Positions 8,965 to 36,172 are shown, counted from the first letter of the stretch. The stretch is DNA of 64,000 nucleotides from an uncultured Holophagae bacterium (GCA_963754985.1 CAVWIJ010000006.1:27245-91244); one strand, 5' to 3'. The notes: generated from the letters alone by a model not told the origin. Translations and numbers: made by a program.

Positions 8965-9067
8965 CGTCAGGATGCGCGCAGCGCATCCCGAGGAGCGTGT
9001 GGGCAGAGGCCAACAACAGGGACCACGTCAGGAACGCGCCCAGGGGCCTATGCCCCACACGCTCCTA
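8965..9067. mobile_element. miniature inverted-repeat element, copy 2
   Basis: TIRs AGGAGCGTGTGGGCA (8991-9005) and TGCCCCACACGCTCCT (9051-9066); same flanking hairpin as copy 1; overlaps the TAG stop of the neighbouring gene. Confidence 0.7.
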
Positions 9068-9718
9068 CTCGACGCTGAGCGACTGCAGCTCGACCGGGAT
9101 CGGCGGGTTGTAGGTCAGGTCGTCGAACACCGCCACCCCGCCGGTGAAGCTCAGCCGGCAGGACGCGATCTGCCCGGCGGCGGTGACCGACAGCGGCTGC
9201 AGCGCCGAGGTGCCGGTGATCGACTGCGAGCCGACCGACGCGGCGCCGGCATCGAAGCACTCCAGCGTGATGGTGCCGGCCGAGTCGCCGCCGCCGTTGA
9301 TCGCCACCGTGTCCACGGCCACGCTGAAGGTCAGCGTCTCCGGGCCGCGCGGGATGCCGCCGTTTGACAGGCTGCTGTTGATGTTGAAGGCGAGGAAGTT
9401 GGGCGCGCTGTAGCCGCTGACTCCGAAGTTCCCGCACTCGTCGAGGATCGCGCCGCCGTCGTTGCCGCCGGGGCCGCTGAACACCACTCCGAGAGCGCTG
9501 TACTCGGTGGTCAGGGCGACGGTGCTCGCGAAGTTGCAGGGCTGGGTTCCGTCGTCGAAGTCGATGTCCCCGGGCACGCTGGCCTCGAAGCCTCCGGCCG
9601 CCGGCACGCCGCTGACGGCGCCGGCCTGCACTCCGTTCTCGACCTGGGCCGCACCCACTCCGAGCCACAGCACCAACACCACTACCGCACCGACAACACT
9701 CAAATACTCACGCCGCAT
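9065..9718 (-). CDS. secreted hypothetical beta-sandwich protein with C-terminal IPVELQSLSVE tag
   Basis: SD AGGAGG, signal peptide MRREYLSVVGAVVVLVLWLGVGAA, 'IDFDD...EYSALGVVFSG...FDDLTY', C-terminal PVELQ motif. Confidence 0.8.
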   Translation of the reverse strand: MRREYLSVVGAVVVLVLWLGVGAAQVENGVQAGAVSGVPAAGGFEASVPGDIDFDDGTQPCNFASTVALTTEYSALGVVFSGPGGNDGGAILDECGNFGVSGYSAPNFLAFNINSSLSNGGIPRGPETLTFSVAVDTVAINGGGDSAGTITLECFDAGAASVGSQSITGTSALQPLSVTAAGQIASCRLSFTGGVAVFDDLTYNPPIPVELQSLSVE

Positions 9719-9905
9719 GGGTTGCCTCCTGGCTCTCGTCGCCGCTGGCTTGATTATCGTGTTCTCTCGTGCCACGAGTATAGCGTGAAGTCTCGGCGGC
9801 GGCGTAGCGCCCTCAACCGAGATGCCTCCCCACCCAGACGTGACCCGGGCGGGCCGCCCGATGAGCGGCGCCTCCCCTCATCGCTTGTGGACGCGGCCCG
9901 ACGCC

Positions 9906-12675
9906 TCAGTCCGCCCGCTGCGGCGGGATGGTGATCGGATCGCCATCCCGGTTCACCCGGAACGCCCTGACGTACAGCGGGCCGCTCGCGCTCACCTCGA
10001 GCCGCTTGTTTCGTCCCCCGTGGTTGGGGTTCACGACTGCGATGATGCTGTTGGTCTGGACCAGCTCGCCGCCCCGCACGGTGAGCGTGGTCTGCCCTTC
10101 GGACGCTCCGGTGGCGCCGTCGTAGAGCTCCACGGTGAGGGTGGCGGTGGCCGACCCCGGGTTGAAGGCGGCGATGTGACTCCGCTCCCGGCCACTCTGG
10201 TCGTTGACCTCGCGCAGGCCGAGCAGGTGGTAGGTCACGCCGGTCTGGATCTGCTCTCCCGGCAGCATGCCCGGGATGTCCTGGCCGGCGGTCCCCACCA
10301 CCTGGCCCTGCTGGTTGCGGTAGATAGCGAACTCGCGTCCGGTGGCGGCGAGCAGGGTGCCGTTCAGCGACGTGAGGCGCAGCGTGCCGACCCCCTGGAG
10401 CCCGAAGAGATCGCCCACGAAGTCCTCGTAGCCCATGGTTCGACCGGCGGGGATGGTGAAGGTCGTGCTCTGGTTCACGCCCGGCGTCCCGCGCGCGAAG
10501 AAGTCGGCGCGGACCGAGGCCTGCCCCTGGCTGAAGTTGGTGACGCTGGCCGAGCCGCTGAACTCGTTGAGCCCCTGGATCGGCCCCAGCTCGAGCAGGG
10601 TCACCGCCGGCGCGCCGCCGGTGACCGGGAGGATCGTGGTCGGGTCGTTGGTCCCGGTGTAAGCGATGTTGCCGTCGAGAATGCTGGCGTAGGCCAGCGC
10701 CTTACCCGAGGTCACCGCCACCGCGATCACGATGTCATCGGTCGGCGGGATGTGGAAGACGTTGAAGATGTTGTTGAGCTGCCGGCTGTCGCCCCGGTCG
10801 AGGGCAAATGTCTGGCCCGCCGCCAGCGGCGTGCCGATCCGCTCCTGCAAGGTCACCGTGACCTGGGTGCCGTCCGCCAGCCCCATCAGCCCGACGTTGA
10901 CCCGGTAGACCTGGGCGTTGACGGTGCTCGCGAGATAGCCCACCTGCCCGGCCGCGAGCGCATCCGCCTCGCGCAGCGCCGGGAAGAACTGGCCGAACTC
11001 GCTGCCGTCGCTGTTGCGCGCGAAGACCACGCTCTGGGCGAGGAGATCGCCGCCGCCGCCCCTGAGCTCGAGCAGCAGGCTGCCCACGGCCGGAGTGCTG
11101 CCGCTGAAGCCGAACCAGGCTGCCAGGGGATCGGTCACGCTGAGCTGGGTGTTGGCCGGCAAGGAAACCACCTCGGTGCGGGGCGTGCCGCCGAGGTCGG
11201 CTCGCGGCGTGTAGGTCACGTCCACCTGGCGGCTCTGACCGCTCGGGTTGAACAGGTCGACGCGGGAGGTGAAGAAGGCCCCGCTTCCCTGCACCCTGGC
11301 CACCGCCGGGATCGCCACCGCCTGGCTGGGCGGAGTGAAGACCTGGTAGAGGCGCCCCTGCACGCTGAAGCCGTTGCCGTCGTTGCCCGGGCTGCCGTTG
11401 CTCTCCCAGACCACGAGCAGCCGGCCGGTCGGAGCGAGCACCACCGCCGGGAACTGCTGGGCATTCGTGGTGTAGCTGTTGGCCTGAACATCCGCCGCGT
11501 CAAGGGCGACACCGTCCGCATCGAAGGCCCGAAACTGGACGCTGTAATCGGAGTTGTCGTTGCCGGCCGAGCCGTAGCTCTGCCAGGCAATGCCGTAGAA
11601 GCCGTTTGAGGCGATGGTCGCCGAGGGATAGCGCTGATCGTCGTTCGTGTAGGTGTTGATCTGGACGTCGTTGTCATCGAGAAACTCGCCGCTGGCATCC
11701 AGGCGCCGTGCCTGCACCGAGAGCCGCGAGGTGTCGCTTCCGAAGGTGCCGCCGAAGCTCTCCCAGGCGACGACGGCCCCCTCGGGACCCATCGCGACCG
11801 ACGGCGAACTCTGGGAGCCGGTCGGGTAGGTGTTGGCCGTCTGCTGGGGCGCGTCGGCGGTGATGCCTGCTGATGCCAGGTTGTCCGCCGTGAAGAAGCG
11901 GATCGCGATGTCGTTGCTCGTGGCGGGCTCCCTCCACGCGACCAGGTAGCGCGAGCCTCCGTCGCTCGCGATGGCCGGCTCATCCTGGTCGCCCGGGGTG
12001 ATGTCATTGACGAGGAACTGGTCGAAGAAGCTCCCGGTGCCCGCCCGGAAGCGGCGGCCCTGGATGCTGATGCCGGGATCGCCGCCGGCGCCACCAGCAC
12101 TTTTCCAGACCACGACGAAGTCGCCGTTGTCCGCCATCGCGACGACCGGTGCGCCCTGGGTGCCGGAGGTGTGACGCGCTGTTGACCAGCAGCTCGGCGC
12201 CCACCTTGGCGCCGGCGGCGTTGTAGCGCTGGGCCATGATGTCGAAGTCGGACGTCCCGTGGTTGCTCTCCCAGACGACGACGAAGGCGCCGCTCGAGCT
12301 CCTCGCCACCGCCGGCGACTTCTGCTCGTTCGCGGTCGAGGTGTTGACCTGGAACTCCGGCCCGACGGCGGCGCCCGCCGCATCGAAGAGCCGAGCCTGG
12401 ATCGAGCGGCTGGAGCTGTCGTTCCCGCCGGAGCTGTAGCTCTCCCAGACGACAACGAAGTTGCCGGCCACGTCGGCCGCCACGGCAGGCAGCTGCTGCG
12501 CGCTGCCGGTCACGGTGTTGACCTGGAACTGCGCGGTGAGGGGACCGCTGGCGAGCGCTGCCTGAGAGAGCAGCAGCGCGGCGGTCGCCACGACGAGCAC
12601 CGCCGCTCGCCGGTCCAGGTCGCGCACGACGGTTGAAGGGGTCCGGTGGAGTGACGTCTGGCGTTGACGAGACAA
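9906..12675 (-). CDS. large secreted protein: N-terminal FQVNT..Q..PAVA..FVVVW repeats plus duplicated C-terminal putative anchor domain; frameshift near 12175
   Basis: SD AGGAGG before TTG 12675; signal-like hydrophobic stretch; about six repeats of '(Q/A)VNTYT..Q..P.VA...G..VV.WES'; C-terminal 'IPAVARVQGSGAFFTSRVDLFNP...GDPITIP'. Confidence 0.8.
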
Positions 12676-12849
12676 TTGCTTCCTCCTGTCACGTTTCTGA
12701 TCAGCGGTTGCTTTCCAGTATGTCGCGGTGGCACACGCTCGGTCGGGCACCGGGAGCCGATGGACCACCGTCGAGGTCGGGGTGAGAACCAGTTGCGGAT
12801 TGTATTGCGAGGAGGTATCAAATGCAATACCGCGCCGTGAAACGCCTCG

Positions 12850-13207
12850 CGATGGCGTCCCCGTGTTGGTCGAGGATCTCGACGCGAGGCTGACGGTCTC
12901 GTCGGTGAGGTTGTGGGTCCACACCTCGGTTGTCCAGTGGGTGCCCTGAGCTCCCGGCGCGGAAGCGGCCGCCGGCAGGTGCAACGTCACCGCAGTCGAG
13001 GCACCTGCGGTCACCACCACATCTCGAACTCGATGATCGCGGGATCGCCCCCACCGGCGCATCGGGCGTGCGAACCAGCAGGTAGAGGCATCCGTCGCCG
13101 TCCAGCCGGTCTCCCGGTGTTGAAGCACCGTTCTGGATCAGATGCCCGGCCTCAACCCCGGGCGCAAGCGCGACGACGGCAGCCGCGAACCACGACCACA
13201 GAGGCAC
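12850..13207 (-). pseudogene. degraded remnant of a secreted protein carrying the start of the same anchor-like domain
   Basis: Signal-peptide-like start (WSWFAAAVVALAPGVEA); in another frame 'DVVVTAGASTAVTLHLPAAASAPGAQGTHWTTEVWTHNL', then similarity breaks off. Confidence 0.5.
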
Positions 13208-13305
13208 GGCCGACCGCCTCTCACGAGCCCTCCCACAATCCTCGCGAAGTCAATCGGGGAACAGCAGCTCGCGGCGGGTGCCGCGGCCGAAGCGACAGGC
13301 GACGG

Positions 13306-16208
13306 TCACGCCGGACCGAGCACGGCCGAGACGACCCGGTTGCGGCCCTCGGCCTTGGCGCGGTACAGGGCCTGGTCCGCGGCGGCGATCAGCTCGTCAA
13401 GAGTGTGGCCCTCACGCGGCACGACCGTCGCAACTCCGACGCTGACCGTCACCTGGTGGCTTCCTTCCGGGCCCGCATCAGGGAGGTGGAGCTCGGCCAC
13501 CGCGACGCGCAGCTTCTCGGCGACGCGGCACGCACCTTCCAGATCGGTACTGCAGAGCAGCACGATGAACTCCTCGCCGCCGTAGCGGGCGGCGATGTCG
13601 CCGGCGCGCTGGATCCGCTCGGTCAGGACCCGGCCCACCGCCTGCAGGCAACGGTCCCCGGCGGGGTGACCGCAGACGTCATTGAAGCGCTTGAAGTGAT
13701 CAAGGTCGAGCAGCGCCGCCGTGAGTGATGATCCGCTTCGCACTGCTCGCCGCCACTCGAGCTCGGCGTGCTCGAAGAGGCGCCGCCGATTGGCGAGGCC
13801 GGTCAGCGGATCCTCGCGCGCCAGTCGCTCGAGCTCGGCGTTCGCCTCTCCGAGCTCCCGGGTGCGCTGCGCCACCAGCCTTTCGAGCTCGAGGCGGCGG
13901 ACCTCGAGCCAGTGCAGTCGTACCCGCACCCCACCCCAGACCAGCGCGCCCACTCCCGCGAGGCCGGCGAGCCGGAACCACCGCGTCTCGAAGAACCTGG
14001 CGGCGACGCTGATCTGGGCCGCGGCCCGGTCGTCGCTCCAGGGGCCGCCGACCTCGCCTGAGGCGACCCAGAAGCGGTAGCGCCCCGGCCGCAGGTTCGT
14101 GTAGTAGGCGGTCCGCCGCTCGCCGACCTCGACCCAGTCGTCGTCGAAGCCTTCGAGGCGAGTGCGGAAGCGGAGGCGGTCGGCGCGGACGAAGGAGGGC
14201 ACCGTGTAGGCGATCTCGAGGCTGCGTCCGCCGGCCGCAACCGAAACCGGCGAGGTCGCCGGCGAGACCGACCGTCCGTCCACCGCCATCCGATCGATGA
14301 GCACCGGCGCCCGCGCGCTCTCGAGCCGGGGATGGTCGGGGTCGACCAGCGCAAGGCCGTCGCTGGTGACGAAGCACAGCCGGCCGTCGGCGAGCCGGCA
14401 GCCGGCCGGCTGCACCGTTCCGAGGCAGCGCCGGGAGGGCAGCCCATCGTGCTCGTCGAGGAGCAGCGGGCTCAGGCTGCGCCGCTTGCCCGCGCGCCAC
14501 CGCGTCGAGATCCTCGCGCTCGAGGCGGTACACCCCGGCGAGGCTCGAGACCCAGAGCGTGCCCCGGCCGTCGCTCAGGACCTGGGCCACGTGGAGGCTG
14601 GGCAGGCCGTCGGCGGCCCGCCAGGTGTCGAGGCGTCCGCCCTCCAGCCGGCTGAGCCCGCCGGTCGTGCCGATCCAGACAGTACCGCCGGGCTCGACCT
14701 CGAGGGTGGTGACGTAGTCGCCGGCGAGGCCGTCACGGGAGCTGAGGGTGGTCAGCTCGCGGCCCGCAATCCTGTTCAATCCTGCCGTTCCTCCGGCCCA
14801 CACGACTCCGTCCGCGCCAACGGCGATGGCGCCGATGTAGCCGTCGCTGAGCCCGTCGGAGGGCAGGAAGGACTGGCGCACCTCCCCCGCCAACAGCTGG
14901 TAGAGACCGCCGCCGCGGGTTCCGACCCACAGCTGTCCTGCCCCGTCCTCGGCGAGTGCGATCACCATCGGCTGTACCCCGACTCCGGGCAGCGGTACGG
15001 CGATCAGCCGCCCGCCGGCGAGCCGCATGAGACCGGCCGCCCCGCCTGCCCACACCGTGCCGCTCCGGTCCTCCACCACGACGGTCATCAGGGGGTCTTC
15101 GCCCGGCGGCGCAAAGCGTTCCACCGACCGTCCGCGCCAGGCGAGCAGACCGTCGGTGGTGGCCACCCACAGCGTCCCGTTGGCGCCCTGGGCCACCCCG
15201 TAGGGCGCGCCGGAGATCCCCTCGCTGGCCGTGATCGGCTCGACCGCGGTGTCGGCGAGCTGCACCAGATCCGCCCCGCCCAGCCACAGCGACCCCTCCC
15301 GGTCCTCGAAGAGGGCCGGGACCGCCAGCGCAGCCATCGGATTGAGGCCCTCCGGCGGGCACACGGCCTGCCCGTTCTCGACCCGGCACAAGCCGCGATC
15401 GGCGCTGCCGAGAAAAACCTGGCCGTGGCGGTCCTCGAGCAGGCTTGCGAGCTCGGGCACCCCGTCCGCGTCGAGCGGCACCACCCGTCCCCCGCGCAGC
15501 TTCAGGGCGCGGCGTCCGCCGAAGAGCCACAGGCCGCCGTCAGGGGCGGGCTGGAGGCCGAGTGGCCCGCGTGCCGCCCCTTCGAGGAGCTCTGCCCCGG
15601 GTGCGAGCCGGCCTTCGACCAACCGATCGAGCCCCGGCCGCTCGCGACCCACAGCCCGCCGTCGTCGTCGACGGCGAGGTCGTGCACCGGCGTGCCGCGC
15701 AGCTCGGCGAGCTCGGGCGCCGCGAGACCCGCGCGTCCACCACCCGGTCGAGCCCACCCTTGGTGCCGACCCAGATCGCACCTTCCCCGTCCTCGGCCAG
15801 CGCCATCACGACGTCGTGGCTCAGCCCGTCGGCCACGGTGAGGAGCTCGAAGCTCCCGCCGGCCCGGCGCAGCAGCCCCCCGACCGTGCCGATCCACAGC
15901 CCGCCGTCACGGTCCTCGAGCAGGGCGGTCACGTAGTCGTTGCGGAACGCCGGCACTGTGGCCGATGAAAAGAGCTCGGTGCCGGCGCCGTCGAGCCGCG
16001 CGAGGCCGGCGATGGTCCCGACCCAGAGGAAGCCGTCGCGCGTCTGGAGCAGGCAGGTCACGGTCGGGTCCGGAAGCTCCTCGGCCCACGACCGCGCGTG
16101 GTACTGGGTCAGCATCCGTGCCGGGTCAAGGGCGGCTGCCGGCTCCGCCACAAGAACCGCCAGCAGCAGCGCACACCAGCCTCGCGGCAGGGGCGGGCGG
16201 GAAACCAC
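13306..16208 (-). CDS. membrane diguanylate cyclase: periplasmic two-component-regulator propeller + Y_Y_Y + TM + GGDEF; frameshifts near 15720, 15660 and 14450
   Basis: 'ALDPARMLTQY..RSW', repeated D..G.LW.GT..GL, 'AYYTNLRPGRYRF', DPLTGLANRR, DLDHFKRFND, I-site RAGD and active site ARYGGEEF, AADQALYRAK..GRN. Confidence 0.88.
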
Positions 16209-19083: not shown

Positions 19084-19092
19084 TCGGTCCCT

Positions 19093-20326: not shown

Positions 20327-22459
20327 TCAGGAAGGCGCCAGGGGCGGTGGGTCGCGGCGGGGCGGCAACAGGAAGTCGCGCGGCGCGGTGACGAAGCGGC
20401 GGTAGAGGCTGCCGATCAGCGACCTGATTCCGGCGCCCGGCAGCTCGTAGGCGCGCGCGGCGGTCACCAGGGCGAGCAGGAAGCTCACCGACAGGTTGAG
20501 CACGAACATCACCGCGACGCCGGCGAGGCCGCGCAGGAACATCCCCTCGTCGAACCACCCCCGGCCGAGCGAGGAGGTCGCCAGCGACAGCACGCCGCTG
20601 TTGAGCGTGACGTGGCGGACGTCGAGCGGCGCACCGAGGAAGTGGCCGATCGCCGGCGTCATGCCGAGCATGAAGCCGAGCGAGACGTTGGTCGCCCAGC
20701 CGGCCCCATTGCGGGCCAGCGCCTCGCCCCAGCGCGCCATCCGCTCGCGGCCGAGACGCTCGCCTGCCGGGTGCTGCGCGATCGCCAGCGGCAGCCGGTG
20801 GTAGGCGCAGAAGTTGTCGAACCAGCCGCCGACCACGCTCGCGAGCCACAGGATCACCCCGGTAAGGGCGGCGTAGAACACGGTCAGGGAGTTGACCGGG
20901 CTCAAGGCCTTGTAGACCTTCACCGCTTCCGCTTGGCCGAGGAACGGACGCCCGAGGAGCGCGCTCCACAGGAGGACGAAGGCGACCGACCCGGCGCTGA
21001 CCGCGATCAGGTTGGCGGTCACGGCGGCGAGCTGCGAGCGGGAGATCCTCGCCGCGTACTCGGTGATCTCGTGCGCCCGGTCGTCGCCGCGGCGCTCACG
21101 CACGATGGCGGCCAGGGCGGCGCCGGTCATGGCCGGCTGCTTGGTGGCAAGGACGAGCCCGAAGCGCTGCATGAGGAGGAAGCTCACGGCGTAGTTGAGG
21201 CCGTAGACGAGGCCGTGCACGAAGTCCGGCGCGGGCCAGCCCGAGATCGCGGTCTTGATCGCCGCGGTGCCGACGGTGAGCAGGCCGCCCCCGGCGGCGG
21301 CCAGCCAGATGTGACGGTACTCGCTGCGGGTGTTTGCGATGTAGTGCTCGCCGGTGCGCCCCGAGCGCTCGACAATGCGGCGCTGCAGCAGGTGGGTGGT
21401 CCACCAGGTCAGATGGCGCACGCTGCGATCGTCATTGACCGAGCTCGCGAGACGGGCGAACAGGCGGTGCAGCGCCACCGCGGCCTCGCGCTCGCTCGGC
21501 GCAGCCATGATGTCGAGCATCATGGCCATGCGCGTCAGGCTGCGCTCGATCAGCTCCAGACCGTAGACCACGTGGGTGCTGACGCCCTCGCGCTCGATCC
21601 GGCGGTGGATCTCGGCCATCTCCTCCCGGCAACGCTCGCTCTCTCGCCGCCACGCTTCGGCCTCCTCCGCGAGCGGCTGGCCGGCGAGCCAGCGCTCGAC
21701 GACGACCTCGCTGAGCTGGGCGATGCGGTGGAAGGGCGACGCCGTCACCTCGCAGGGCCGGCTGCGCTTGCGCAGCTTGGGCGACAGCCCCTGCGACTTG
21801 GTCCAGGTGGCGAGCAGGCGGAAACCGTCGGCGAACGAGCGGCGGAGGCCCGCCCAAACCTCCGGATGATCGGCAACCGAGTGGAGGCGGACGAATCGCT
21901 CGAACAGCGCCTCGGGCATCTCGTCGAAGCGCTCGACGTCAGCTGCGGATCGGAACAGCCGGCGCAGCAGCGTGGCCAGATCGCGGTCATTGCGCGGCCG
22001 CGGCAGCAGCCGGTCCATGATCCTCTCGCCGAGCTCGGCAAGGAACCCACGCTCGCTCGGGATGCCGGCGTGCCCGAAGACGTTGGTGGCGTCGCTCTCC
22101 TCGAGCACCGAGCGGATGGCGTCCTGGTAGCGGCGGCGCAGCCCTTGGTCGGACTCGAGCAGCGCGAGCGCCGCGTCGAGCCGGCCGCCCCGACGCCGCG
22201 ACCAGAAGTGGCGTCCGGGTGAGCTCTCCGGGTCGTCCCATCCCTCGCGAGCCCAGCGCACCAGCGCCACGACCGCGTCCATGCGCTCGGGCAGCGTGGC
22301 AGCCTCCAGAATGGGCTCGAGGTGCTGGCGCGCGTCGGCGGCGAGCGAGTCGCCCGCCGCACGGTGCGGCAGCGGCGTTTCGCCTCCCGCCTCGGCCGGC
22401 CCGACCCCCGCAACGTCCTGCTGTCCCGGATGACGAACTTCTGGCTTCACGACTCGCAT
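20327..22459 (-). CDS. Gcr/'SpecificRecomb'-family integral membrane protein
   Basis: Family motifs GF..EL..R...LLP, TGEHYIA, AAGGGLLT, LATKQPAMT, SQLAAV.AN, AALTGVILW..S..GGW.DN, LDVRHVTL; start codon uncertain. Confidence 0.8.
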   Translation of the reverse strand: MRVVKPEVRHPGQQDVAGVGPAEAGGETPLPHRAAGDSLAADARQHLEPILEAATLPERMDAVVALVRWAREGWDDPESSPGRHFWSRRRGGRLDAALALLESDQGLRRRYQDAIRSVLEESDATNVFGHAGIPSERGFLAELGERIMDRLLPRPRNDRDLATLLRRLFRSAADVERFDEMPEALFERFVRLHSVADHPEVWAGLRRSFADGFRLLATWTKSQGLSPKLRKRSRPCEVTASPFHRIAQLSEVVVERWLAGQPLAEEAEAWRRESERCREEMAEIHRRIEREGVSTHVVYGLELIERSLTRMAMMLDIMAAPSEREAAVALHRLFARLASSVNDDRSVRHLTWWTTHLLQRRIVERSGRTGEHYIANTRSEYRHIWLAAAGGGLLTVGTAAIKTAISGWPAPDFVHGLVYGLNYAVSFLLMQRFGLVLATKQPAMTGAALAAIVRERRGDDRAHEITEYAARISRSQLAAVTANLIAVSAGSVAFVLLWSALLGRPFLGQAEAVKVYKALSPVNSLTVFYAALTGVILWLASVVGGWFDNFCAYHRLPLAIAQHPAGERLGRERMARWGEALARNGAGWATNVSLGFMLGMTPAIGHFLGAPLDVRHVTLNSGVLSLATSSLGRGWFDEGMFLRGLAGVAVMFVLNLSVSFLLALVTAARAYELPGAGIRSLIGSLYRRFVTAPRDFLLPPRRDPPPLAPS

Positions 22460-23600: not shown

Positions 23601-25782
23601 ATGACAAAACCACGGGTCTGTGAGTTTGGCGCTGCGCGCCGTGTGGCGAGCGCCCTCGTCCTCGCCGTGCTCTCGACCGGCGTGTGCGCCGCCCAGATTC
23701 CGGGATCGACCTGGCGCTACTACCGGCCCGGCAACACCGGGATCCAGGGCGACTACAACCAGGCGATCTACATCGGGCCGGACGACGACCCGTGGATCGG
23801 CGGCTACGACCCCGGCTTCGAGGAAGGCGGCGTCGCCAAGCTCGCTGCAGGCCGAGAACCGCTGGATCAACGTCTCGAACATCGACTACCCGGTGATCGG
23901 GCATCCTGACGTCACCGGCACCACGCGCGTCAGCGACATCGTGGCCGACGCCAACGGCGATCTCTGGATGGCCACGTGGCGGAGCGCGCTCACGATGGAC
24001 CCGGAGGTCGGCGGCCCGTCCCTGGTCAACTTCGCCTCGGCGAGCCCGGCGCTGGCCAACGGCGGCGCCCGCGACCTCGACATCGCGCCGGACGGCACGA
24101 TCTGGTTCGCCCTGATCGGCTACGGCGGATACCAGGGCGGCGTCGTCCGGCACACTCCCGGCACCTCCGACTGGCACTACTGGACCGGCGGCTCGGTGCC
24201 CCAGGGGGGCAACGGCTGGCCGCAGCTGGTGTGGAACGTGGCGCACGTGTCGATCCAGCCCAAGCCGGGCGGCGGCTACATCGTGTGGGCCGACAGCGAC
24301 AACAGCTCCGCGATCGTGTCCTTCGACAGCAACTCCCAGCTCTGGACCTTCCACGAGTTCAGCTACACGCCCGGATCGCTGCTCGAGCTGCCGGGCAAGG
24401 ACTGCGTCGACGACTCCGGGAACCTGTGGGCGAGGCGCTTCTCGCACTTCTCGGGCAGCGACCCGGTCTTCTCGCTCGACTATCGCACGCCGTCCGGCAC
24501 CTGGATCGTGCCGCCGCAGCCCAGCCTGCCGGCGGTCAACCCGCCGATCTGGGCCTTCACCGCCCACGGCGACGGCGGAGCCCTGCTCGCTGACGGCACC
24601 AGCCGGATCTGGAGCTTCAACGGCGCCGGCTGGGACGACCTCGGCATCTGGGGCGACTTCACCTCCACCTACAGCCTCGCCGTCGACAGCCTCGGCAACG
24701 TCTGGGCGAGCGGCGTCGGCGGCGCCGGCGAAGCGCGACGTCGCGACCGGCCTCTGGCAGCGCCACCGGGTCAGCAACAGCAGCCAGTACGACACCTTCA
24801 ACGCCGACCTGCACATCGATCCGGCGACGGGTCGCGTGGCGGCGTGCGCCAACGCCGGTTCCGGCGTCGGCGGCATGACGATCTTCGACGGCGTGCGCTG
24901 GACCGGCTTCAACAACGACCAGTACGGGCTCGGCGAGCCCTGGCCGTTCCCGTCCGACAACTGCCAGGAGGTCGCCTTCCGGCCCTCGACCGCAGGCGTG
25001 GTCGCGAACCCCACCTACGCCGGCCTGCACGAGTGGGACGGTGCGACCTGGACGGATCTCGGCGGCCGAGCGAGAGCCGCGGGCTCGTCGAGGACTCGCT
25101 GGGCCGCCTGTGGTCGCTCGGCCTCTACTACGACCTGCGCTACTTTGACGGGACGAACTGGTTCCTGGTGCCGAACAACGGCGCCGGGGGCGTCAACCTC
25201 CAGCGCGACCCCACCCGTCCGGGGACGATCTGGGCGAGCACCGACGCCGAGGTGATCCGCACCGACGGGAACTACCGGTACTCTCGCGACTACACCCAGT
25301 TCCCGCAGCTCAACCCGCAGAGCGACCTCTTCAGCACGGTCGCCGCGGCGCGGGACGGCATCGCCTGGCTCGGGTCCACCCAGGGCATCTTCCGCCTCGA
25401 CGCCGAGGCCGGGACCTACGACTACTTCACCTCGCTCGGCGGCATCTCGGCGATGAACGCCAGCCCGCTCGCCGTCACCCCCGATGGCCTGCTCTGGTAC
25501 AACGTCTTCGACCCCTTCGGGACAGGACCGCACGGACTGGTCTGGTTCGACGGCACGAACGCTGGGATCTACCCTGCCCCGCGCGGTGGAGAGCCGCAGT
25601 GGGGCGGACTGCCGCACGCGCAGATCGCCTCACTCGAGGTCCGCATCGTGCCGGGCGGCTACGAGCTGTGGATGAGCTGCCTGTCGCGCGGCATCGCGGT
25701 GCTGTTCGTGCCCGCGGGCTCGGTCTTTACGGACGGCTTCGAGTCCGGCGACACCGCGGCCTGGTCGGCGACCGTGCCGTAA
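23601..25782 (+). CDS. secreted beta-propeller protein with C-terminal VFTDGFESGDTAAWSATVP tag; frameshifts near 23845, 24730 and 25065
   Basis: Signal peptide; 'WRYYRPGNTGI.GD', repeated D..G.(L/I)W blades; the fragments join into one protein. Confidence 0.8.
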
Positions 25783-28124: not shown

Positions 28125-28334
28125 CCATCACCCCCTGCTGCCGCGCGTGAGAGGCCCGTCTGGTGCCCGCAGTGTAGCGTGGCGCGCCCTCCAGACCGGC
28201 ATGAGCGGCGAGGCGCCGGGGCCGCTGAGCCGGCCGCGCGTCGAGAACCGGTGCCCCCCGGACCGCGTATCGTTGGGGTGAGAAGCGGCGGGCGCCGCGC
28301 TGCCGCGGCGCCGCACCGCCGGGAGGGACCGACG

Positions 28335-29270: not shown

Positions 29271-29310
29271 GGCGGGGCACTTCAGCCCCCACCAAGCGCT
29301 GCTGTCCGGG

Positions 29311-29468
29311 TCGTTCCCGTTCCCGATCCCGTTCCCGATCCCGTGCCCGTTCCCGAGACGACGGCAGGCGCTCAGTCAACCGTCGGTGCCGGCGCTCACG
29401 AAGAACGGCGCTCCCCTGTCCCGTCGCATCCCATCCGGGTACGGGAACGGGAAGGGGAACGGGAACGG
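29311..29468. repeat. inverted hexamer-array element (CCCGTT/CCCGAT)7 ... (ACGGGA)~5
   Basis: Seven CCCGWK units at 29316-29357 and complementary ACGGGA units at 29436-29468, between convergent genes. Confidence 0.85.
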
Positions 29469-29493
29469 ATCGCAGCAGCCTCGCGAGCTTGGG

Positions 29494-30504
29494 TCAACCC
29501 ACCTTGAGCAGCTGCTTGCCCCGGTTGGCGCCGGTGAACAGCCGGCGCAGCGTGCGGGGCGCGTTCTCCAGACCTTCCTGGATGTCGACCTCGACGCGGA
29601 TCTCCCCGGCCTCCACCCAGCGTCCAAGCTCGGCGACCGCTTCGCCGGTGCGGTGGAGGTAGTCGAGGATGATGAAGCCCTCCATGCGGCCGCGCTGCAG
29701 GAGCAGGTTGAGGTAGTGGCGCGGCCCCGGTCCGAGCTCGCTGCGGTTGTAGTCCGCGATCGCGCCGCACAGCACGACCCGTCCCTTGAAGGCGAGCCGC
29801 GCCAGCGCGGCGTCGAGGATCTCGCCGCCGACGTTGTCGAAGTAGATGTCGATGCCGCCGGGGCAGAGAGCGGCCAGGCGCGCCGCGACGTCCTCGCTGC
29901 GGTAGTCGATGGCGGCGTCGAAGCGGGCCTCGTCGACCAGCCAGCGGCACTTGTCCTGGCCGCCGGCGATTCCGACCACCCGGCAACCCTTGAGGCGGGC
30001 GATCTGACCGACCACCGAGCCGGTGGCGCCAGCGGCGCCCGACACGACAACCGTCTCCCCCGCCTCCGGCCGGCCGATCTCGAGCAGCCCGAAGTAGGCG
30101 GTCAGACCGGTGACGCCGAGGGCGCTCATCGCGATCGGGATCGGGACGCTCTCGGGGACCACGTTGAGCCTGGCCGAGCTGCCGTCCAGCAGGGCGTAGT
30201 CCTGCCAGCCGAGGAGGCCCTGGACCAGCTGGCCCTCCTGATAGCCCGGGTGCCGTGACTCGACGACCCGGCCGACCCCGAACGAGCGCATCACCTCGCC
30301 GATCGCCACCGCCGGCAGGTAGGTGTCGCGGGCCATCCAGCCTCGTTGGGTCGGATCACATGACAGGTAGAGGGTGCGGACGAGCAGCTGCCCGTCCGAC
30401 GTCAATCCGGGGGCCGGCTCCTCGACCCAGCGGAAGTGCTCGTCACCCACCATGCCCTCGGGCCGCGCCGCCAGGCGCCACTGCCGGTTGGTTCTCGACT
30501 CCAT
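29494..30504 (-). CDS. NADP-dependent oxidoreductase (MDR; CurA/YncB/prostaglandin reductase-like)
   Basis: NRQWRLAARPEG, YLSCDP..RGWM, LGVTGLTAYFGL, VSGAAGATGS, YFDNVGG, LCGAIADY, G.NRGK. Confidence 0.93.
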   Translation of the reverse strand: MESRTNRQWRLAARPEGMVGDEHFRWVEEPAPGLTSDGQLLVRTLYLSCDPTQRGWMARDTYLPAVAIGEVMRSFGVGRVVESRHPGYQEGQLVQGLLGWQDYALLDGSSARLNVVPESVPIPIAMSALGVTGLTAYFGLLEIGRPEAGETVVVSGAAGATGSVVGQIARLKGCRVVGIAGGQDKCRWLVDEARFDAAIDYRSEDVAARLAALCPGGIDIYFDNVGGEILDAALARLAFKGRVVLCGAIADYNRSELGPGPRHYLNLLLQRGRMEGFIILDYLHRTGEAVAELGRWVEAGEIRVEVDIQEGLENAPRTLRRLFTGANRGKQLLKVG

Positions 30505-30918
30505 GCCATCCTCCGTCGATCTCTGGTCCGTTCACTCGGCCGCCGGCTGTCCGCCGTCCCGGCGGGACGCGCAGGCACCAAGGGAAGCGTCGCCGGCCTG
30601 AACGGCATTCCGAGTTAGAATCCACGGCAGAGAGCCCAGAGGGTCCAAAGCTCCATGCCGTCGCCGAGGGCGACCGCCGCCGTCATCGTGCTCCTTGCCG
30701 TGATGGCTGGAGCCACGCCAGCCGCGGCGCAGCACGCGACCACCGGATCGCTGGCCGGGTCCGTGGCCGGAACGGGCGGCGATCCGCGCCGCATGGCCGA
30801 CGCGCGCGGGCTGTGACGCTCAGGGCCGGACAGCCTCCACGCCCGGGGACTGGGAGAGTGGGGAAACCCGGGCGGCGCGCCCCCCGAGAGGGACGCGCCG
30901 CCCGCATCGGACTTCGGA

Positions 30919-32374
30919 TCAGGGTGCTGTGTTCATCGCGTAGGACAGAACGGCGTAGGCGATCGCGTCGGCGTTGAGGTCGAGCACCTCGAGACTGACG
31001 TTGTCGAAGGTGTCGCACGCTTGGTGGTAGCACGGGTCGTACTGGAGTCCCGCGGTGCCGCCGTAGATCGCGGCCTGCTCGGCGGTCTTGATGCCGGTCG
31101 AACCCGCAAACACGCCACCTACCGGGATCCCCGCGGCGGCGAAGGGCGTGTAATCGGAAACGGCGCCGATCGCCTCCGGCTCGTAAGCGAGGCCGCGGTC
31201 GGCGTGGAAACCCTCGAACAGCGCCTCGATGGCGTCGGAGCCGGGGGGTCCGGGCACTCCTGATGCCGAGCCGTCGCCGTCGTAGACGAAGCGCACGAAG
31301 TTCGGCGAGCCGATGGCGTCGAAGTCCAGGTACAGGGCGATGTCCTCGAGCTCGCTCGGGGTGAGGTTGCTCAGGTAGTAGGTCGAGCCGAGCAGCCCCG
31401 CTTCCTTGCCGCCCCACCACGCGAAGCGGACCAGATTGTGCGGCTTCACCTTGGCCATCTGCAGGGCGACCTCCAGGATGGCCGAGCTGCCCGAACCGTT
31501 GTCGTTGATGCCGGGTCCGGCATCGACCGAGTCGAGATGGGCCCCGACCATGACCACGTTCTGCGGGTCTCCTGTCGTCGACTCCGCCAGCACGTTGTAG
31601 TCGGTGGCGAGGCCGCGGAAGGCGTCGGCAACCATGTGGATGACGAGGCCGGGCGTCCCTGCCCACTCCGCGCCGCGGTCGTAGCTCGCGGACATCACCG
31701 GAATGCCGCCGGCGTAGCCCGCGCTCAAGCGTGCCGACGAACAGCCCCGTGCGGTCCGGGGTGTTGCCCTGGTTGAAGATGATGACGCCGACCGCCCCGG
31801 CCGAAGCGGCGTTTTCGGCCTTCATCTGGAAGCTGCAGGTGCCGCGCTGGAGGAGCGCGATGTTGCCGGGCGGGAAGCCGGCGAAGTCGGCCACCTCGCA
31901 GCCGCTGGTCGACGTGTTGCCCAGCCCGAGTTGGAGATCGATGGCGATCACCGCGGCCGTGACATCGCCGGATTCGGTGTGGGCCAAGAGGGCGTAGTCG
32001 TCCCCTTCCACGTAGACGGTCGGCGACGGGGCGATCTGCTCGAGGGTCGAGGGACCGGCCTGGAAGTAGGTCAGGTACTCGAAGGGCTGGATGGTCACGT
32101 TGTAGCCGGCCGCGGCCATCGCGGCGGCGACGTAGTCGACCGACTCGTCGTAGCCGGCCGAGCCGGACACGCGCGTGCCACCGTTGGCATCGGCGATCGC
32201 CTGCAGGGCCGCCTGGTGGGCGCGGACCCCGTCGACGGTCACGCACTCCAGCAGCTTCTTGGGGGTGTTATTCGTTCGGTTGTCACATGCCTCTGGCCCG
32301 GCGAGCACCGAGACCGCAGCGGGTGGGGCAAGCAGGCAGAGAGCGACCAGGATCAGACGGCGGAACAGGTACAT
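30919..32374 (-). CDS. PA-domain M28 aminopeptidase (aminopeptidase Y-like), secreted; frameshift near 31730
   Basis: Signal peptide; IADANGGTR.SG..GY; PA domain IALLQRGTCSF..KA.NA..AGA; GAHLDSV..GPGINDNGSG; DPCYHQACDT. Confidence 0.9.
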
Positions 32375-32527
32375 GATGAGGACCTCCCTTTTGTCTTGGC
32401 GGCGGTTTGCCAGTCGTTTCATTGACATCAGTCCACTTCCGGCCCCGGCGGCCAGCGCGCCGGAAGTGGCCAGCGGTGCGCGACATCACCACCGGGGCGC
32501 GATTCGTCGGAATGTAAAGACTAGTTG

Positions 32528-32555
32528 ACGATAAGGTCCGGAGTCGATCTGTCAA
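32528..32555 (-). promoter_or_regulatory. sigma70-type promoter for the aminopeptidase gene
   Basis: Minus strand TTGACA-N16-TATCGT in an AT-richer intergenic patch. Confidence 0.5.
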
Positions 32556-32685
32556 GAGACCATGTCTCACAATCTATGCTCGAGCACCCGCCCTCCGCAG
32601 ATCGCCAATGGACGGCCAGGGACACGAGATGACGACCGACCTGGACCTCAGGAGCACCGCGCGCGCGAGCTGATCGCGGCTGAAC

Positions 32686-33600
32686 TCAACGCACGGGGAG
32701 GCCGGTGGCGAGCGCGGCAAGCAGGCGCCGCTGGGTATCGGAGGGGAGGTCCGGGGCATCGCAGTGCACGCCGGCGACGAAGCGCTCGGTCGCCACCGCG
32801 GTGCCTGAGCCGAGCTCGCCGGCCGAGTAGCGGAAGCCGCCTCGGCCGGGCGATGGCAGATCGTCGACCGGCGTCCGCCGCGCCCACTCGTCGCGCAGCC
32901 TGGCCAGCGCCTGCGCCGCCGTCTCCTCGCTTCCGAGCTCCGAGTAGTAGAGCCGCGCTTCGCGGCCATCGATCCGGTAGCTCGCCGTCACGCCCCCCGG
33001 CAGGAAGGCGTGGCCGAGCAGGTCGGCCGCGAACCAGCGCTCGCTCTGTGGCACCAGCCCTTCCGCCGGCAGCGGCTCGAGGAAGGCCGGCAGCGCATCC
33101 ACGCCCGGCGCCCGGTCGCAGACCTGCTCCATGAATTTCCCCAGCGCGGCGGTGAGCTCGGCTCGATCGTCGTCGGCCTCGCCGTGAACGTAGAGGCCCC
33201 CCGCCATGCAGCGGCCACGGTCCCGGAGCTGTAGCCCTCGGTGCACCACGGCGCGCGGCGCGGCGTCGGGAGGCAGGGCGCTGCGGAAGATGCCGAAGGC
33301 CCCCGCCGGGCCGCCCATGTCGTAGAGGTCGAGGGTGACGCAGGCGAGCGGGTCCTCTCCGAGCTGGTATCGCAGGTGGACGAGCTCTCGAAAGCCGTAG
33401 CCGACGTAGCGCTCGGCGCCGCCGTCGAGGTACTCGAAGAGGCGGTCGGGACCGTGGCGGGTCGGCCCCTCGACCACCTTCCAGCCGGGGAGGCGCGCCG
33501 CGTCCGGGAGCAGCGTCTCGAGCTCTCCCGCCGGCGGCGACCCGCAGGCGAGGCCGACGACGAGCGCGGCCGCGGCACCGAGCCGCGCGAGCCCGCTCAT
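32686..33600 (-). CDS. DUF6599-like lipoprotein
   Basis: Lipobox GLAC; 'LFEYLDGGAERY..YGF', 'LDLYDMG...AFGIF', 'LLGHAFLPGG..A.Y'; ATGA-coupled to upstream reductase. Confidence 0.72.
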   Translation of the reverse strand: MSGLARLGAAAALVVGLACGSPPAGELETLLPDAARLPGWKVVEGPTRHGPDRLFEYLDGGAERYVGYGFRELVHLRYQLGEDPLACVTLDLYDMGGPAGAFGIFRSALPPDAAPRAVVHRGLQLRDRGRCMAGGLYVHGEADDDRAELTAALGKFMEQVCDRAPGVDALPAFLEPLPAEGLVPQSERWFAADLLGHAFLPGGVTASYRIDGREARLYYSELGSEETAAQALARLRDEWARRTPVDDLPSPGRGGFRYSAGELGSGTAVATERFVAGVHCDAPDLPSDTQRRLLAALATGLPVR

Positions 33601-34787
33601 GCCGTTGCCACACCGAGCCGCCGGTGCGCCTCGACCAGCTCGGCCCGAACCGGCCGGGAAAACGGGCACGCGGCCTCACACGGCGCCACGCAGCCCGCGC
33701 AGGCCGCCGCTGCGCGCGGCGGCGCCAGCGCGGCATAGCGCCGCCGGGCCTCGTCGTGGCGGTCGTAGTAGGCGAAGTACATGAAGAAGCGATTCACGTC
33801 GGCGATCGCCACACCGTGCGGGCAGCTCGCTTCGCAGGCGGCGCAGAAGCGGCAGTAACGGTGGCGCACCTCGTCGGCGTAGCGGCCGAGCATCGCGGCC
33901 TCGGCCAGGCTCAGGCGAGATCCCACCGCGGCGGTCATCTCCCGGATCTGCTCGAAGCTCCCGAAGGTGACGGCCACGCTCGCCACGGCCGGGTTGGTGA
34001 GGGCCCACTTGACGGCCGCATCGCGGAACGACAGGCCGCCCGCCTCGAGCTCCTTGATTTCGCGCTGGCGCTTGCCAGCGTTGGTCTTGAAGGCGATGGT
34101 GCCGATGCCCCGCGCCGCCGCACGCTCGAGGATTTCGTCGAGATCCGGGTAGGACACGAAGTCGTACTTGATGAAGAAGACCTCGAAGCGGCCGTCCTCC
34201 ATGGCGGCGTTCAGCACCCCCTGCATCCCGCCCGAGTGACCCGACAGCCCGAGGTGTCGCACCTTGCCCGCCTGCTTCGCCGCCGCGATGGCCTCGTGGA
34301 AGGCCTCGACGTGCAGCTCGGCCGGCGCGCGGACATCGGCCGCGTAGTAGACGTCGATGTGATCGCTGCCGAGGCGGCGCAGGCTCGCGTCGATGTCCGC
34401 GAGGACGTTGCCCGCACTCTGATGGGCGTCGACCGGGTTGCCGGTGACCACGACCAGACGGTCGCGTTCGGCGGCGACGTCGCGCAGCGCGCGCCCCAGC
34501 GCCTCCTCCTCGCGGCCGTCGAGGTACTGGCCGGAGGTCGCGAAGGTGTTGATCCCGGCCTCGACCGCGGCCGCCATCAGCGGCGGGTTGTCGACCCCGT
34601 GGGCGCCGAAGGCAAGCTCCGACACCTCGAGGCCGGTGCGGCCGAACGGACGGGAGCCCATCCGGCCGGGAGCGGCTGGCGCCTCGGGCTCGGGACCCTC
34701 AGCGCCGCAGCCGATCGCGAGACCCGAGGCAGCGGCACCCAGCTTGAGGAAATCTCGGCGGTTGACACCCTTCGGCGCGTCGACCAT
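33597..34787 (-). CDS. Tat-exported aldo/keto reductase with C-terminal 4Fe-4S dicluster
   Basis: Tat motif NRRDFLK; RPFGRTGLEVS.L.FG, SLRRLGSDHIDVY, GKVRHLGLSGH; YCRFCAACEASCP ... ACAGCVAPCEAACP. Confidence 0.9.
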   Translation of the reverse strand: MVDAPKGVNRRDFLKLGAAASGLAIGCGAEGPEPEAPAAPGRMGSRPFGRTGLEVSELAFGAHGVDNPPLMAAAVEAGINTFATSGQYLDGREEEALGRALRDVAAERDRLVVVTGNPVDAHQSAGNVLADIDASLRRLGSDHIDVYYAADVRAPAELHVEAFHEAIAAAKQAGKVRHLGLSGHSGGMQGVLNAAMEDGRFEVFFIKYDFVSYPDLDEILERAAARGIGTIAFKTNAGKRQREIKELEAGGLSFRDAAVKWALTNPAVASVAVTFGSFEQIREMTAAVGSRLSLAEAAMLGRYADEVRHRYCRFCAACEASCPHGVAIADVNRFFMYFAYYDRHDEARRRYAALAPPRAAAACAGCVAPCEAACPFSRPVRAELVEAHRRLGVATA

Positions 34788-35053
34788 GGGGACCTCCCGC
34801 GCGCGGCCTCGCGATGGATCGGACACTGACCCGCATTCTGTTGCCCGCGGGGCGCTGTCGTTGGTTGTGCCTCCCTTCAGTATAGGGCTCTCCGGCGATC
34901 GCCGGGCGCTGCCCGCCGGCCGCCTGCTCTTGACTTTCCCGGCGTTCGGCTCAATCGTGGAAGCGAGGAGATTCCGAGAACAGCACGACAGCAGGCCCCT
35001 CCGCAGCGACATCGAGCGGTCGCGGCCCGTCCCAACTAAAGGAGGATGGAGAG

Positions 35054-36172
35054 ATGATCCGAAGTTCGGTTCGGCTCGCAGTGATCGTGATGGTGATGAC
35101 CGCCGCGGCCGTTGTGGCGCAGGCCGGCGACGACCAGGAGTGGGGCGGCACGTGGCAGAACGGTCCCCCGACCACCTTCCCGCAGGCCTTCTCGCGCTTC
35201 GACGGCGCCTATGACCCCGGCACCGGCCTGGTCTACTTCCTGGGTGGCCGCCTCGCCGACGCCAACACCGACGGCAGTATCTGGACCTTCAACCCCTCGA
35301 CCGGCATCTACGCCGACACCGGTCTCGACATGCCGGTCCCGATCTCGAACTACACCATCAACGTGCTCAACGACGCCACCGGCGAGGGCTACTACGTCTT
35401 CTGCGGACGGCCGTCGGCTGGCGGCGTGGTGACATCCGTCCAGGTCTACTACCCCGCCACCAACACGGTGATCCAACTGCCGCCCGCCGACGACTTCCCC
35501 GGCGACGCCACCCACTCGTGCAGCTCGGCTCTCAACGCGGTGGTCAACAACAAGGTCTACATGGCCGGCGGCTTCAACGCGACGGCGATGAGCGAGCAGA
35601 CGTGGGTCTTCGATCCGATGGCGCCATCGGGGAGCAGGTGGACCCGGATCGCATCGGCCGACCTCGCCGTGGCCAGGGCTTACATCATGGGCGCGGTGGT
35701 CGACGGCAAGATCTACGCCGTCGGTGGCGCGTCGTGGGACGGTGCTGCGCTCATCAACCTGGACACGGTGCAGATGCTCGACCCGGCCGCCCCGACCCCG
35801 ACCTGGACACCCTTGGCATCCCTGCCCGAGGCGTGCTCGAGCTCGCGCGCCTGGGGCTTCGACACCGGCAGCCTCTACATCGATCCCAGCGATATGACCC
35901 CGCTTTCCGGCAAGATCATCAGCGGCTGCGGCTTCTGGTCGACGGCCATCCAGGCCGTCTACGCCTACACCGTGGCCACCAACAGCTGGGAGGCCTTCCC
36001 GCCGTTCCTCACCGCCCGTCGTGACATGGCGGGCGAGCTCATTCCCATCGCCGGTGAGGAGGCACTGTGGGTCTGGGGCGGTTACGACGGCACCAGCGCC
36101 AACACCACGACCGCCGAGTACTACACTCTCGGCTTGATTCCGGTGGAGCTGCAGACATTCACCATCGAGTAG
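35054..36172 (+). CDS. secreted Kelch-repeat beta-propeller with C-terminal IPVELQTFTIE tag
   Basis: SD AAGGAGG; signal peptide; Kelch blades VYFLGG, KVYMAGG, KIYAVGG, LWVWGG; PVELQ tail. Confidence 0.88.
   Translation: MIRSSVRLAVIVMVMTAAAVVAQAGDDQEWGGTWQNGPPTTFPQAFSRFDGAYDPGTGLVYFLGGRLADANTDGSIWTFNPSTGIYADTGLDMPVPISNYTINVLNDATGEGYYVFCGRPSAGGVVTSVQVYYPATNTVIQLPPADDFPGDATHSCSSALNAVVNNKVYMAGGFNATAMSEQTWVFDPMAPSGSRWTRIASADLAVARAYIMGAVVDGKIYAVGGASWDGAALINLDTVQMLDPAAPTPTWTPLASLPEACSSSRAWGFDTGSLYIDPSDMTPLSGKIISGCGFWSTAIQAVYAYTVATNSWEAFPPFLTARRDMAGELIPIAGEEALWVWGGYDGTSANTTTAEYYTLGLIPVELQTFTIE

Follow-up and report, generated by a model that had tools for sequence, protein, structure and literature searches.

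The DNA analysed here, called the window, is a stretch of 64,000 nucleotides (G000:C6:27245-91244) from the genome of an uncultured Holophagae bacterium living in soil or sediment (genome G000; assembly of 4.73 Mb in 32 contigs, 70% G+C, 71.7% complete). Two of its genes code for unrelated secreted proteins that end in the same 11-residue C-terminal tag, IPVELQ(S/T)(L/F)(S/T)(V/I)E, followed immediately by a stop codon. The first gene is located on the minus strand (9065..9718) and its product, 217 amino acids long, consists of a signal peptide, a jelly-roll domain similar to carbohydrate-binding modules and MAM domains, and the tag. The open reading frame (ORF) spans positions 9065-9775, with the ATG at 9718 as the likely start, and ends in TYNPPIPVELQSLSVE followed by TAG; the tag IPVELQSLSVE and its stop codon occupy 9065..9100 on the same strand. 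The second gene, on the plus strand (35054..36172), codes for a secreted Kelch-repeat beta-propeller protein of 372 amino acids with an N-terminus resembling a signal peptide (Kelch_1, E 5.5e-17, plus other Kelch families). It ends in TLGLIPVELQTFTIE followed by TAG, and its tag, IPVELQTFTIE, is found with the stop codon at 36137..36172 (plus strand). When the tagged proteins were compared with the ORF set by BLASTP (E 1e-6), each of the two matched only itself. The shared ending on two otherwise unrelated secreted proteins, which an earlier note on this DNA had pointed out, was thus confirmed.

A GC-rich hairpin followed by a T-rich run, an arrangement similar to an intrinsic terminator, can be read directly from the sequence at 36197..36227 (plus strand). 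Since these elements lie directly 3′ of the Kelch gene, its stop codon is taken as the true end of the gene. Beyond the stop codon of the 9065-9718 gene the reading frame has no domain-like continuation and enters the next gene, which codes for an M90 peptidase. Scans of the 217-amino-acid protein against Pfam and NCBIfam gave no family. Its AlphaFold2 model, generated with five homologues, is a beta-sandwich with a mean predicted local distance difference test (pLDDT) value of 75 and a final strand at residues 195-204. A Foldseek search with this model returned carbohydrate-binding modules, gingipain adhesin domains and MAM domains (best E 1.9e-5), and in the ESM Atlas the best match (0.89) was to unnamed clusters, the nearest named one being PEP-CTERM (0.81), which is a lead only. 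Residues 207-217, the tag, are modelled with low confidence and no secondary structure in the monomer, and the last seven have a mean pLDDT of 50. The model is in agreement with the earlier proposal that the tag would be a free terminal strand.

The tag is not limited to the two proteins in the window. Among 68,325 stop-to-stop segments obtained from the six reading frames of the genome, the strict motif PVEL[QLVM]x[FILM]x[AVI]x was found 15 times exactly at the stop and once elsewhere. A sixteenth tagged end, outside the strict motif, reads PVTLQSFDIE. A relaxed motif abutted the stop (distance 0) in 16 cases; at each distance from 1 to 29 it occurred no more than five times, and 371 matches lay 30 or more away. 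A DNA pattern for the tag produced 13 matches while its reversed control produced none. A chance origin of the terminal motif is excluded. TAG, TAA and TGA are all used as stop codons after the tags. Plain Sec signal peptides are present in nine of the 15 ORFs with the strict motif, whereas six of the 16 tagged ORFs are mere fragments between two stops, with the upstream parts located in other frames, reflecting frame breaks in the assembly. The relaxed-motif scan revealed no real case in this genome of a tag followed by a full domain, and none of six candidates from a word-indexed protein search for the tail region among longer proteins scored. The PVEL tag corresponds to no Pfam or NCBIfam family, and among 11 tagged proteins that were scanned, none has a Pfam match extending over its tail.

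A scan of one genome per species with the DNA pattern identified at least 123 stretches, and 79 of the 80 loci fetched contain a tagged ORF; their titles are mostly those of Acidobacteriota metagenome-assembled genomes (MAGs) labelled Thermoanaerobaculia, Holophagae or Vicinamibacteria. The 171 unique tails from all loci, with a bias at the positions fixed by the search patterns, gave the consensus [VI]-P-V-E-L-Q-[ST..]-F-[STD]-[IV]-E, preceded by a turn rich in Gly, Thr and Asp; the end can also be written [VI]-P-V-E-L-[QM]-x-[FIL]-x-[VI]-E-COOH. In a sample of the class, 40 of 301 genomes had a match to the DNA pattern (three matches in total for the reversed control), and genera either had the tag or lacked it. 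Positive genera include g1 (4/4, with 13-18 copies), g9 (7/7) and g12 (4/4), as well as g13, g16, g17 and g18, and nearly or wholly negative groups are genus g7 (1/15) and families f2 (0/26), f4 (0/72), f6 (0/43) and f9 (0/27). Relatives have 6-18 copies per genome in some genera and none in others. Among the class matches listed, synonymous sites vary while the tag peptide stays the same, and therefore the tag is under purifying selection. These results indicated that the tag is real, strictly terminal, kept through synonymous codon changes and common to unrelated folds. Outside Acidobacteriota it is found in low copy: once in each of three Dokdonella genomes, four times in a Xanthomonadaceae MAG and six times in a Deltaproteobacteria MAG. 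The Dokdonella cases, single tagged genes (L075, L123, L074), include two cultured strains, and the other loci outside Acidobacteriota are L131 and L127. These cases could be the product of transfer of single tagged genes, and Dokdonella offers a cultivable host for tests.

The proteins that carry the tag are unrelated and mostly small modules of a binding type, such as the Kelch propeller, the jelly-roll of the 217-amino-acid window protein and a choice-of-anchor J domain, together with others that belong to no family. The choice-of-anchor J protein (NF038128; L004:5567-6271, minus strand) matches at E 3.3e-32 with 111.9 bits against a cut-off of 30, over residues 25-218 of 234, and the tag comes directly after the domain; another tagged protein has a weak choice-of-anchor R match. 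Domains named "choice-of-anchor" are those paired with different surface anchors, as stated in a passage on choice-of-anchor A (bioRxiv 10.1101/2023.03.06.531300). The tag begins 3-4 residues past the last strand of the fold. In one public locus (L106) a long linker of Pro/Thr/Ser/Phe repeats runs straight into LVPVELQSFKIE, and therefore the tag can stand apart from any folded domain. Homologues of the 217-amino-acid window protein in the tag-free sister genus g11 (L194:1441-2112, plus strand; L195:1420-2154, minus strand) end instead in PIPAESP or PIPAQTS followed by a hydrophobic helix and a basic end. The tail of the first of these, from genome G134, gave a sub-threshold IPTL-CTERM match (13.4 bits, cut-off 20.5), and the homologue in G150 matched no family. 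A further homologue, in genus g17, ends in VVPVELSRFTVE. Because the tag follows a choice-of-anchor domain and the g11 homologues carry a motif-helix-basic tail at that point, the tag, judged by sequence comparison, occupies the place of sorting or anchoring signals, at a point where its homologues have anchors of another type. The IPVEL of the tag is similar to IPTL, and the tag might derive from such a signal. In the ORF set of the genome the only credible motif-helix-basic tail is that of G000:C18:399483-400019 (plus strand), which ends in LPIPAARPWATGLLIVLIAAAALALLRGGRW and resembles the g11 tails.

The earlier note had suggested that the tag complements a separately encoded acceptor, and a candidate for this role was found beside tagged genes. 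In this genome four consecutive tagged genes (G000:C4:192047-194909) are immediately preceded by the candidate partner gene (G000:C4:191256-191915). In the whole cassette (G000:C4:191256-194909; L002:5257-8910) the second tagged gene is the one that ends in PVTLQSFDIE, and the third and fourth are broken by frame shifts. Portions of the partner gene are matched by contigs from two RNA libraries (X1 and X3) at 95% identity or more; those of X1 extend to part of the first cargo gene, and record 5 of X1 spans the partner 3′ end and the spacer. Such contigs do not demonstrate transcription, DNA carry-over is possible, and they are not counted as evidence. In all 24 partner genes obtained by partner-based searches, a tagged gene on the same strand is located directly downstream, and the cargo families differ from locus to locus. 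The downstream tags in these loci include the variants PVEL[QMI]..., PVTL..., PVEIQ... and ...FSAE. Partner and tagged gene stand side by side in four families of the class (f1, f9, f15 and f20). Within family f1 the partner is present in 23 of 77 genomes (g1 5/7, g12 6/7, g9 6/12, also g13 and g18); in g7 only one of 25 genomes gave a match, weak and with stops, and none was found in g2, g3, g4, g5, g8, g10, g11, g14 or g15. In the class sample, with 12 candidates scored per genome, 17 of 301 genomes were partner-positive, and 15 of these 17 were tag-positive. One of the partner-positive genomes that lacked a match to the DNA pattern, G044, has the ...FSAE variant, which the pattern excludes. 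In a sample of the phylum, with nine candidates scored per genome, the partner was found in two of 401 genomes, both of genus g1. Since the partner-bearing genomes are kin, these counts suggest more independence than there is; the adjacency across four families carries more weight.

The partner, of about 150 amino acids, begins with a signal peptide that has an AxA site; then come a domain of about 85 residues with the motifs V.ISWQ ... RLY.G ... Y.Y.D ... YYQLRY...G.E, a variable, disordered linker of about 40-60 residues and a conserved RPEP(E/D)VPPPR end. Neither Pfam nor NCBIfam contains a family for it, and the Pfam fn3 family itself does not match the partner. The AlphaFold2 model is a sandwich of seven to eight strands, with pLDDT 78-91 in the core, 55-59 for residues 1-20 and disorder at residues 102-141, and Foldseek related it to fibronectin type III (Fn3) and other generic immunoglobulin (Ig)-like sandwiches. 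A profile made from 12 members matched 431 cluster representatives at E<=1e-3, mostly of 140-250 amino acids and with the same architecture. The remaining matches are large proteins with Fn3 repeats, including P0059 (Pfam fn3, E 3.8e-25) and P0001. By its sandwich fold and its profile relation to fn3 repeats, the partner's domain belongs to the fibronectin type III superfamily. In this genome no second partner-like domain was detected (besides the partner, best phmmer E 0.12 and best profile E 0.51), and a credible frame with PEPxVPPPR as a further shared C-terminal tag was found only in the partner. The partners of genus g1 (L011:1687-2160, plus strand, mature residues 95-105; L012 and L013) have a tag-like segment, PVGLQSTPASI, directly after the Fn3-like domain; AlphaFold2 models residues 97-101 as a strand, and the segment is absent from the partners of other genera. 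In g1 partners this segment might possibly serve for self-complementation or chaining.

One protein connects the tag with the partner's domain. Residues 1282-1366 of P0145, a pectinesterase, match the partner profile with 35.4 bits (conditional E 1.1e-12 in a two-sequence search, E 1.1e-10 in the whole library), with VLPLDLLSFEAKK just before and Por_Secre_tail after. The first strand of this domain, LPLDLLSFEA, resembles the tag, and in this protein strand and domain are fused. Therefore, the partner domain is of the kind whose first strand looks like the tag. A tag-like strand may commonly start the Fn3-like domain found before the tail that is recognized by the type IX secretion system (T9SS); P0145 is the one example in our data. 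The resemblance to that first strand, which the earlier note had invoked, thus stands for P0145.

To model the complex, the mature partner (alignment of 12 sequences) and the neighbouring cargo protein (alignment of five) were used. The model scored 0.71, while the best of three controls scored 0.01. The mark used to judge such scores was reached by 116 of 157 solved complexes and by two of 215 mismatched pairs, a guide that is rough here, with alignments of our own making. The runs agreed in at least 41% of the contacts and the pLDDT of the partner chain was at least 85. In the model, cargo residues 197-208 (LVPVELQSFDVE) run antiparallel to partner residues 19-29 (strand B), with the partner:cargo pairs 24:203, 23:205, 22:206, 21:207 and 26:201, and cargo residues F205 and L202 touch the invariant L76 of the partner (strand F) and residues 88-89 (strand G). 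The tag is thus predicted to sit at the strand A/A′ place of the Fn3 fold, the position expected if it complemented an acceptor lacking that strand in the way the earlier note had imagined. The confident contacts also involve partner residues 147-155 (the PDVPPPR end), and we infer that this end may touch the body of the cargo. The complex model supports binding and does not show it. We know of no similar complex.

Taking these findings together, we propose that selection has kept the tag as a portable docking element of Sec-exported proteins, equivalent to strand A of an Fn3-like domain, that docks onto the small secreted Fn3-like partner. Of the readings considered, this is the best supported, and we hold it at about even odds. 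In such a mechanism, the tag would stay unpacked on its own protein after export and would then complement the partner as an inserted beta-strand, next to strand B and across the F/G face, displacing the weak A-like stretch at the partner's own N-terminus. One partner gene and one tagged gene would form a conserved cassette, dispersed tagged proteins would share the same partner as an adaptor, and the proline-rich end of the partner would link the complex to a further component. This end, the most conserved part of the partner, may bind such a component. Among these steps, we infer that the partner gives up its own strand, that it serves as an adaptor and that its PEPxVPPPR end makes the further link, and the physical binding is suggested by the model.

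Several results weigh against this proposal. In most partners strand B is preceded by an A-like stretch of their own (for example, PVTILSSSNQATVSW), and that of this genome has ELRRVVSA, modelled by AlphaFold2 as a strand at residues 7-14 with pLDDT 55-59. Therefore the domain is not obviously incomplete and displacement has to be assumed; a few partners, such as that of G286, have almost no A-like stretch of their own. The earlier idea of an acceptor stood insofar as a candidate lies beside tagged genes in 24 of 24 cases, but this candidate is not simply a domain without its first strand. Past its signal peptide the partner lacks a membrane helix, and it carries no anchor of a known type, so that docking alone does not explain localization; no lipobox was seen in the few partner signal peptides read by eye. 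The predicted contact between the PEPxVPPPR end and the cargo body is hard to reconcile with the variable folds of the cargo. The evidence for binding consists of one prediction job with shallow alignments that we made ourselves (12 and five rows). Two tag-rich genomes of the same genus, G202 (13 tags, 94% complete) and G266 (18 tags, 87% complete), have no partner at E<=10 with all candidates scored, and none was present within the approximately 4.5-7 kb fetched upstream of 21 tagged ends in these genomes (20 loci). Neither G270 nor G282 has a partner, and G005, with eight tags, gave only a 0.23 match. Among 80 loci selected by the tag, the partner was found within 2 kb in only 10, corresponding to nine distinct places, and genomes have 1-3 partner genes and 6-18 tagged genes. 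The tagged genomes outside Acidobacteriota (Dokdonella, the Xanthomonadaceae MAG and the Deltaproteobacteria MAG) have no partner at E<0.01. A locus in the close relative G266 (L043, G266:C1:1374900-1380000) contains an orthologous cargo array without the partner; the leading gene of this array is missing its N-terminal part and has the degenerate end LVLVELQSTTSSDKRRKT, and the genes upstream are different and unrelated.

The tag-rich genomes without a partner, the low number of partners near tags and the dependence on a single prediction therefore keep alive a second explanation, which we consider unlikely but a serious competitor. The tag would be a signal for a sorting, secretion or processing machine, in the way PEP-CTERM is read by exosortase and the C-terminal domain (CTD) by the T9SS, and the Fn3-like neighbor would be an accessory, a special client or a regulator. 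The location of the tag at the position of a tripartite anchor, after a choice-of-anchor domain, fits a signal of this kind, as does the excess of tagged genes over partner genes, and the genome has a marginal exosortase-family match (25.9 bits for a cut-off of 25.7, in a 193-residue frame). However, the tag has neither a hydrophobic helix nor a basic end. The only other recurrent neighbors within 2-kb flanks of the 80 tag-selected loci were a membrane protein (five loci) and a kinase-like protein (four loci); from the start of their sequences, with no family-library search, neither looked like a chaperone or an usher. The T9SS tail family PF18962 had no match in this 71.7% complete genome, and PF14349 (SprA_N), the only T9SS component searched, gave no candidate. 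Both are weak negatives, as neither family was found in any control genome, so that the check for T9SS genes called for earlier carries little weight. The adjacency in 24 of 24 loci and the placement of the tag at strand A in the model point instead to direct contact.

A third explanation, quite unlikely in our judgment, is that the tag joins tagged proteins to each other or into a fiber in which the Fn3-like protein polymerizes and the tagged lectin-like proteins form caps. The tag-like PVGLQSTP segment of the g1 partners, with its modelled strand, and the nature of the cargo, small binding-type modules, would suit such a fiber. There is also a precedent in the WxL/Elr pilus of Enterococcus, where variable payloads are reported to be combined with an invariant attachment/complementation module (bioRxiv 10.64898/2026.10.17.759780). 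Nonetheless, partners of genera other than g1 do not have a tag-like segment after the domain, and no neighbor resembling a chaperone or an usher was seen in the 2-kb flanks. Less probable still is a tag without function, a relic of the first strand that persisted after loss of C-terminal Fn3-like and sorting domains. The match between the tag and strand A of the domain that precedes the sorting tail in a Bacteroidota-type protein, and the lack of a complete tag-plus-domain copy in this genome, would be expected of a remnant. However, the same 11 residues end unrelated folds in many genera with the stop always right after the final Glu, the synonymous codon variation shows purifying selection and an obligate neighbor gene speaks for function. 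Finally, that the ends are artefacts of assembly or gene calling, with truncated genes or stops that are read through into longer Ig-like domains, has hardly any probability left and is refuted for the ends themselves: the assembly does have frame breaks, which made short pieces of some tagged ORFs, but each of the three stop codons occurs after tags, the Kelch gene has a terminator-like hairpin behind it, no domain-like frame exists past the stops, and 79 of 80 independent public loci show these ends again. Neither of the outcomes that would have refuted the earlier note, a tag restricted to the two proteins or artefactual stops, was observed.

The tag and its candidate partner share features with several known systems. 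One is Bacteroidota-type T9SS cargo such as P0145, in which the first strand has the pattern of the tag, P-h-[ED]-L-x-S-F-x-[AV], and the rest of the domain is matched by the partner profile. However, in P0145 strand and domain are part of one polypeptide followed by a 75-residue sorting tail, whereas here they belong to separate proteins and the partner has a PEPxVPPPR end. The T9SS CTD itself (PF18962/TIGR04183) is a folded beta-sandwich of about 70-100 residues, compared with the 11 residues of the tag. As in PEP-CTERM, IPTL-CTERM and LPXTG proteins, the tag comes after the last folded domain of Sec-exported proteins from many unrelated families. Unlike PEP-CTERM and IPTL-CTERM, it has no transmembrane helix or basic cluster, and the protein ends seven residues after PVEL. 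PF07589 (PEP-CTERM) had 0 matches in this genome, and an LPXTG-like motif with helix and basic tail is absent from all 16 tails. In the cohesin-dockerin system of the cellulosome, many secreted modules share a small docking element that fits a separate receptor module. The logic of a shared docking element and a separately encoded receptor is the same, but the dockerin is a calcium-binding duplicated module of about 70 residues (PF00404) rather than an 11-residue strand, and the receptor found here would be a single domain with no known anchor.

In mechanism, the closest analogues are the donor-strand systems, which include chaperone-usher pili and the WxL/Elr pilus. The likeness consists of a strand of one chain that is predicted to enter the Ig-like fold of another and of an invariant attachment module that bears a variable payload, and the differences lie in the fold, the polarity and the accessory genes. 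The acceptor is Fn3-like and mostly has its own A-like strand, no polymer has been shown, and the donor is at the C-terminus of enzymes and lectin-like modules rather than of pilins, with no chaperone or usher seen.

The same genome has another C-terminal tag, FxDGFESGDxxxWSxxxP, present in 47 called proteins and 63 stop-to-stop segments. Both tags lack a membrane anchor, are strictly C-terminal and occur on many exported proteins. They differ in sequence, in the protein families that carry them and in distribution, the PVEL tag being patchy within the class, and a conserved neighbor is known only for the PVEL tag. BLASTP found no match between the 16 PVEL-tagged and the 63 FxDGFE-tagged segments, which speaks against paralogy. 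The earlier note had seen in the PVEL tag a second sorting route distinct from the FxDGFE tag. The distinction holds, but "sorting route" is unproven because the acceptor has no recognizable membrane or wall anchor. Between the two tagged genes of the window, a 720-amino-acid protein (23620-25782, plus strand) with a weak match to Reg_prop repeats ends in an FxDGFE-type tag (FTDGFESGDTAAWSATVP), and a site-specific recombinase is encoded at 20327-22459 on the minus strand (PF10136, E 2e-175). An ORF of 849 amino acids (9906-12455, minus strand), which adjoins the first tagged gene, has no Pfam family at E 1e-5.

The full-text library that was searched yielded no article describing either the motif or a system of this kind in Acidobacteriota. 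The titles listed for the PVEL motif string all concern hepatitis B or SARS-CoV-2, and no article in that library joins Thermoanaerobaculia with C-terminal and sorting, donor strand with Acidobacteri*, or donor strand complementation with fibronectin type III and secreted. Tags at the C-terminus for docking or sorting are a known kind of system, as is strand complementation; new here is the small secreted partner encoded directly upstream of a tagged gene.

To our knowledge, the placement of the very large sets of secreted proteins of Acidobacteriota is essentially unknown. The findings turn an orphan C-terminal tag into a testable two-component system with an 11-residue peptide, a partner of about 150 amino acids, a predicted interface and a conserved gene pair. 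Should the binding not be real, the adjacency in 24 of 24 loci still marks an undescribed functional module. If the binding is true, donor-strand-type complementation would extend from the assembly of pili to the docking of enzymes and lectin-like modules, and the presence here of choice-of-anchor domains without a known anchor would be explained. It would also represent a new class of systems that dock proteins or display them at the surface, and would give protein engineering a small peptide/domain pair of natural origin. A similar partner may then exist for the far more common FxDGFE tag found in this lineage. Somewhat more tentatively than the docking itself, we envisage that Thermoanaerobaculia-type Acidobacteriota could possess a natural, non-covalent split-Fn3 "tag and catcher", in which the PEPxVPPPR end of the adaptor would fix the complex to the envelope or matrix, and that in genus g1 the adaptor may chain into fibers capped by tagged proteins. 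As modelled, the tag and its partner may represent an undescribed way of docking secreted proteins in these bacteria.

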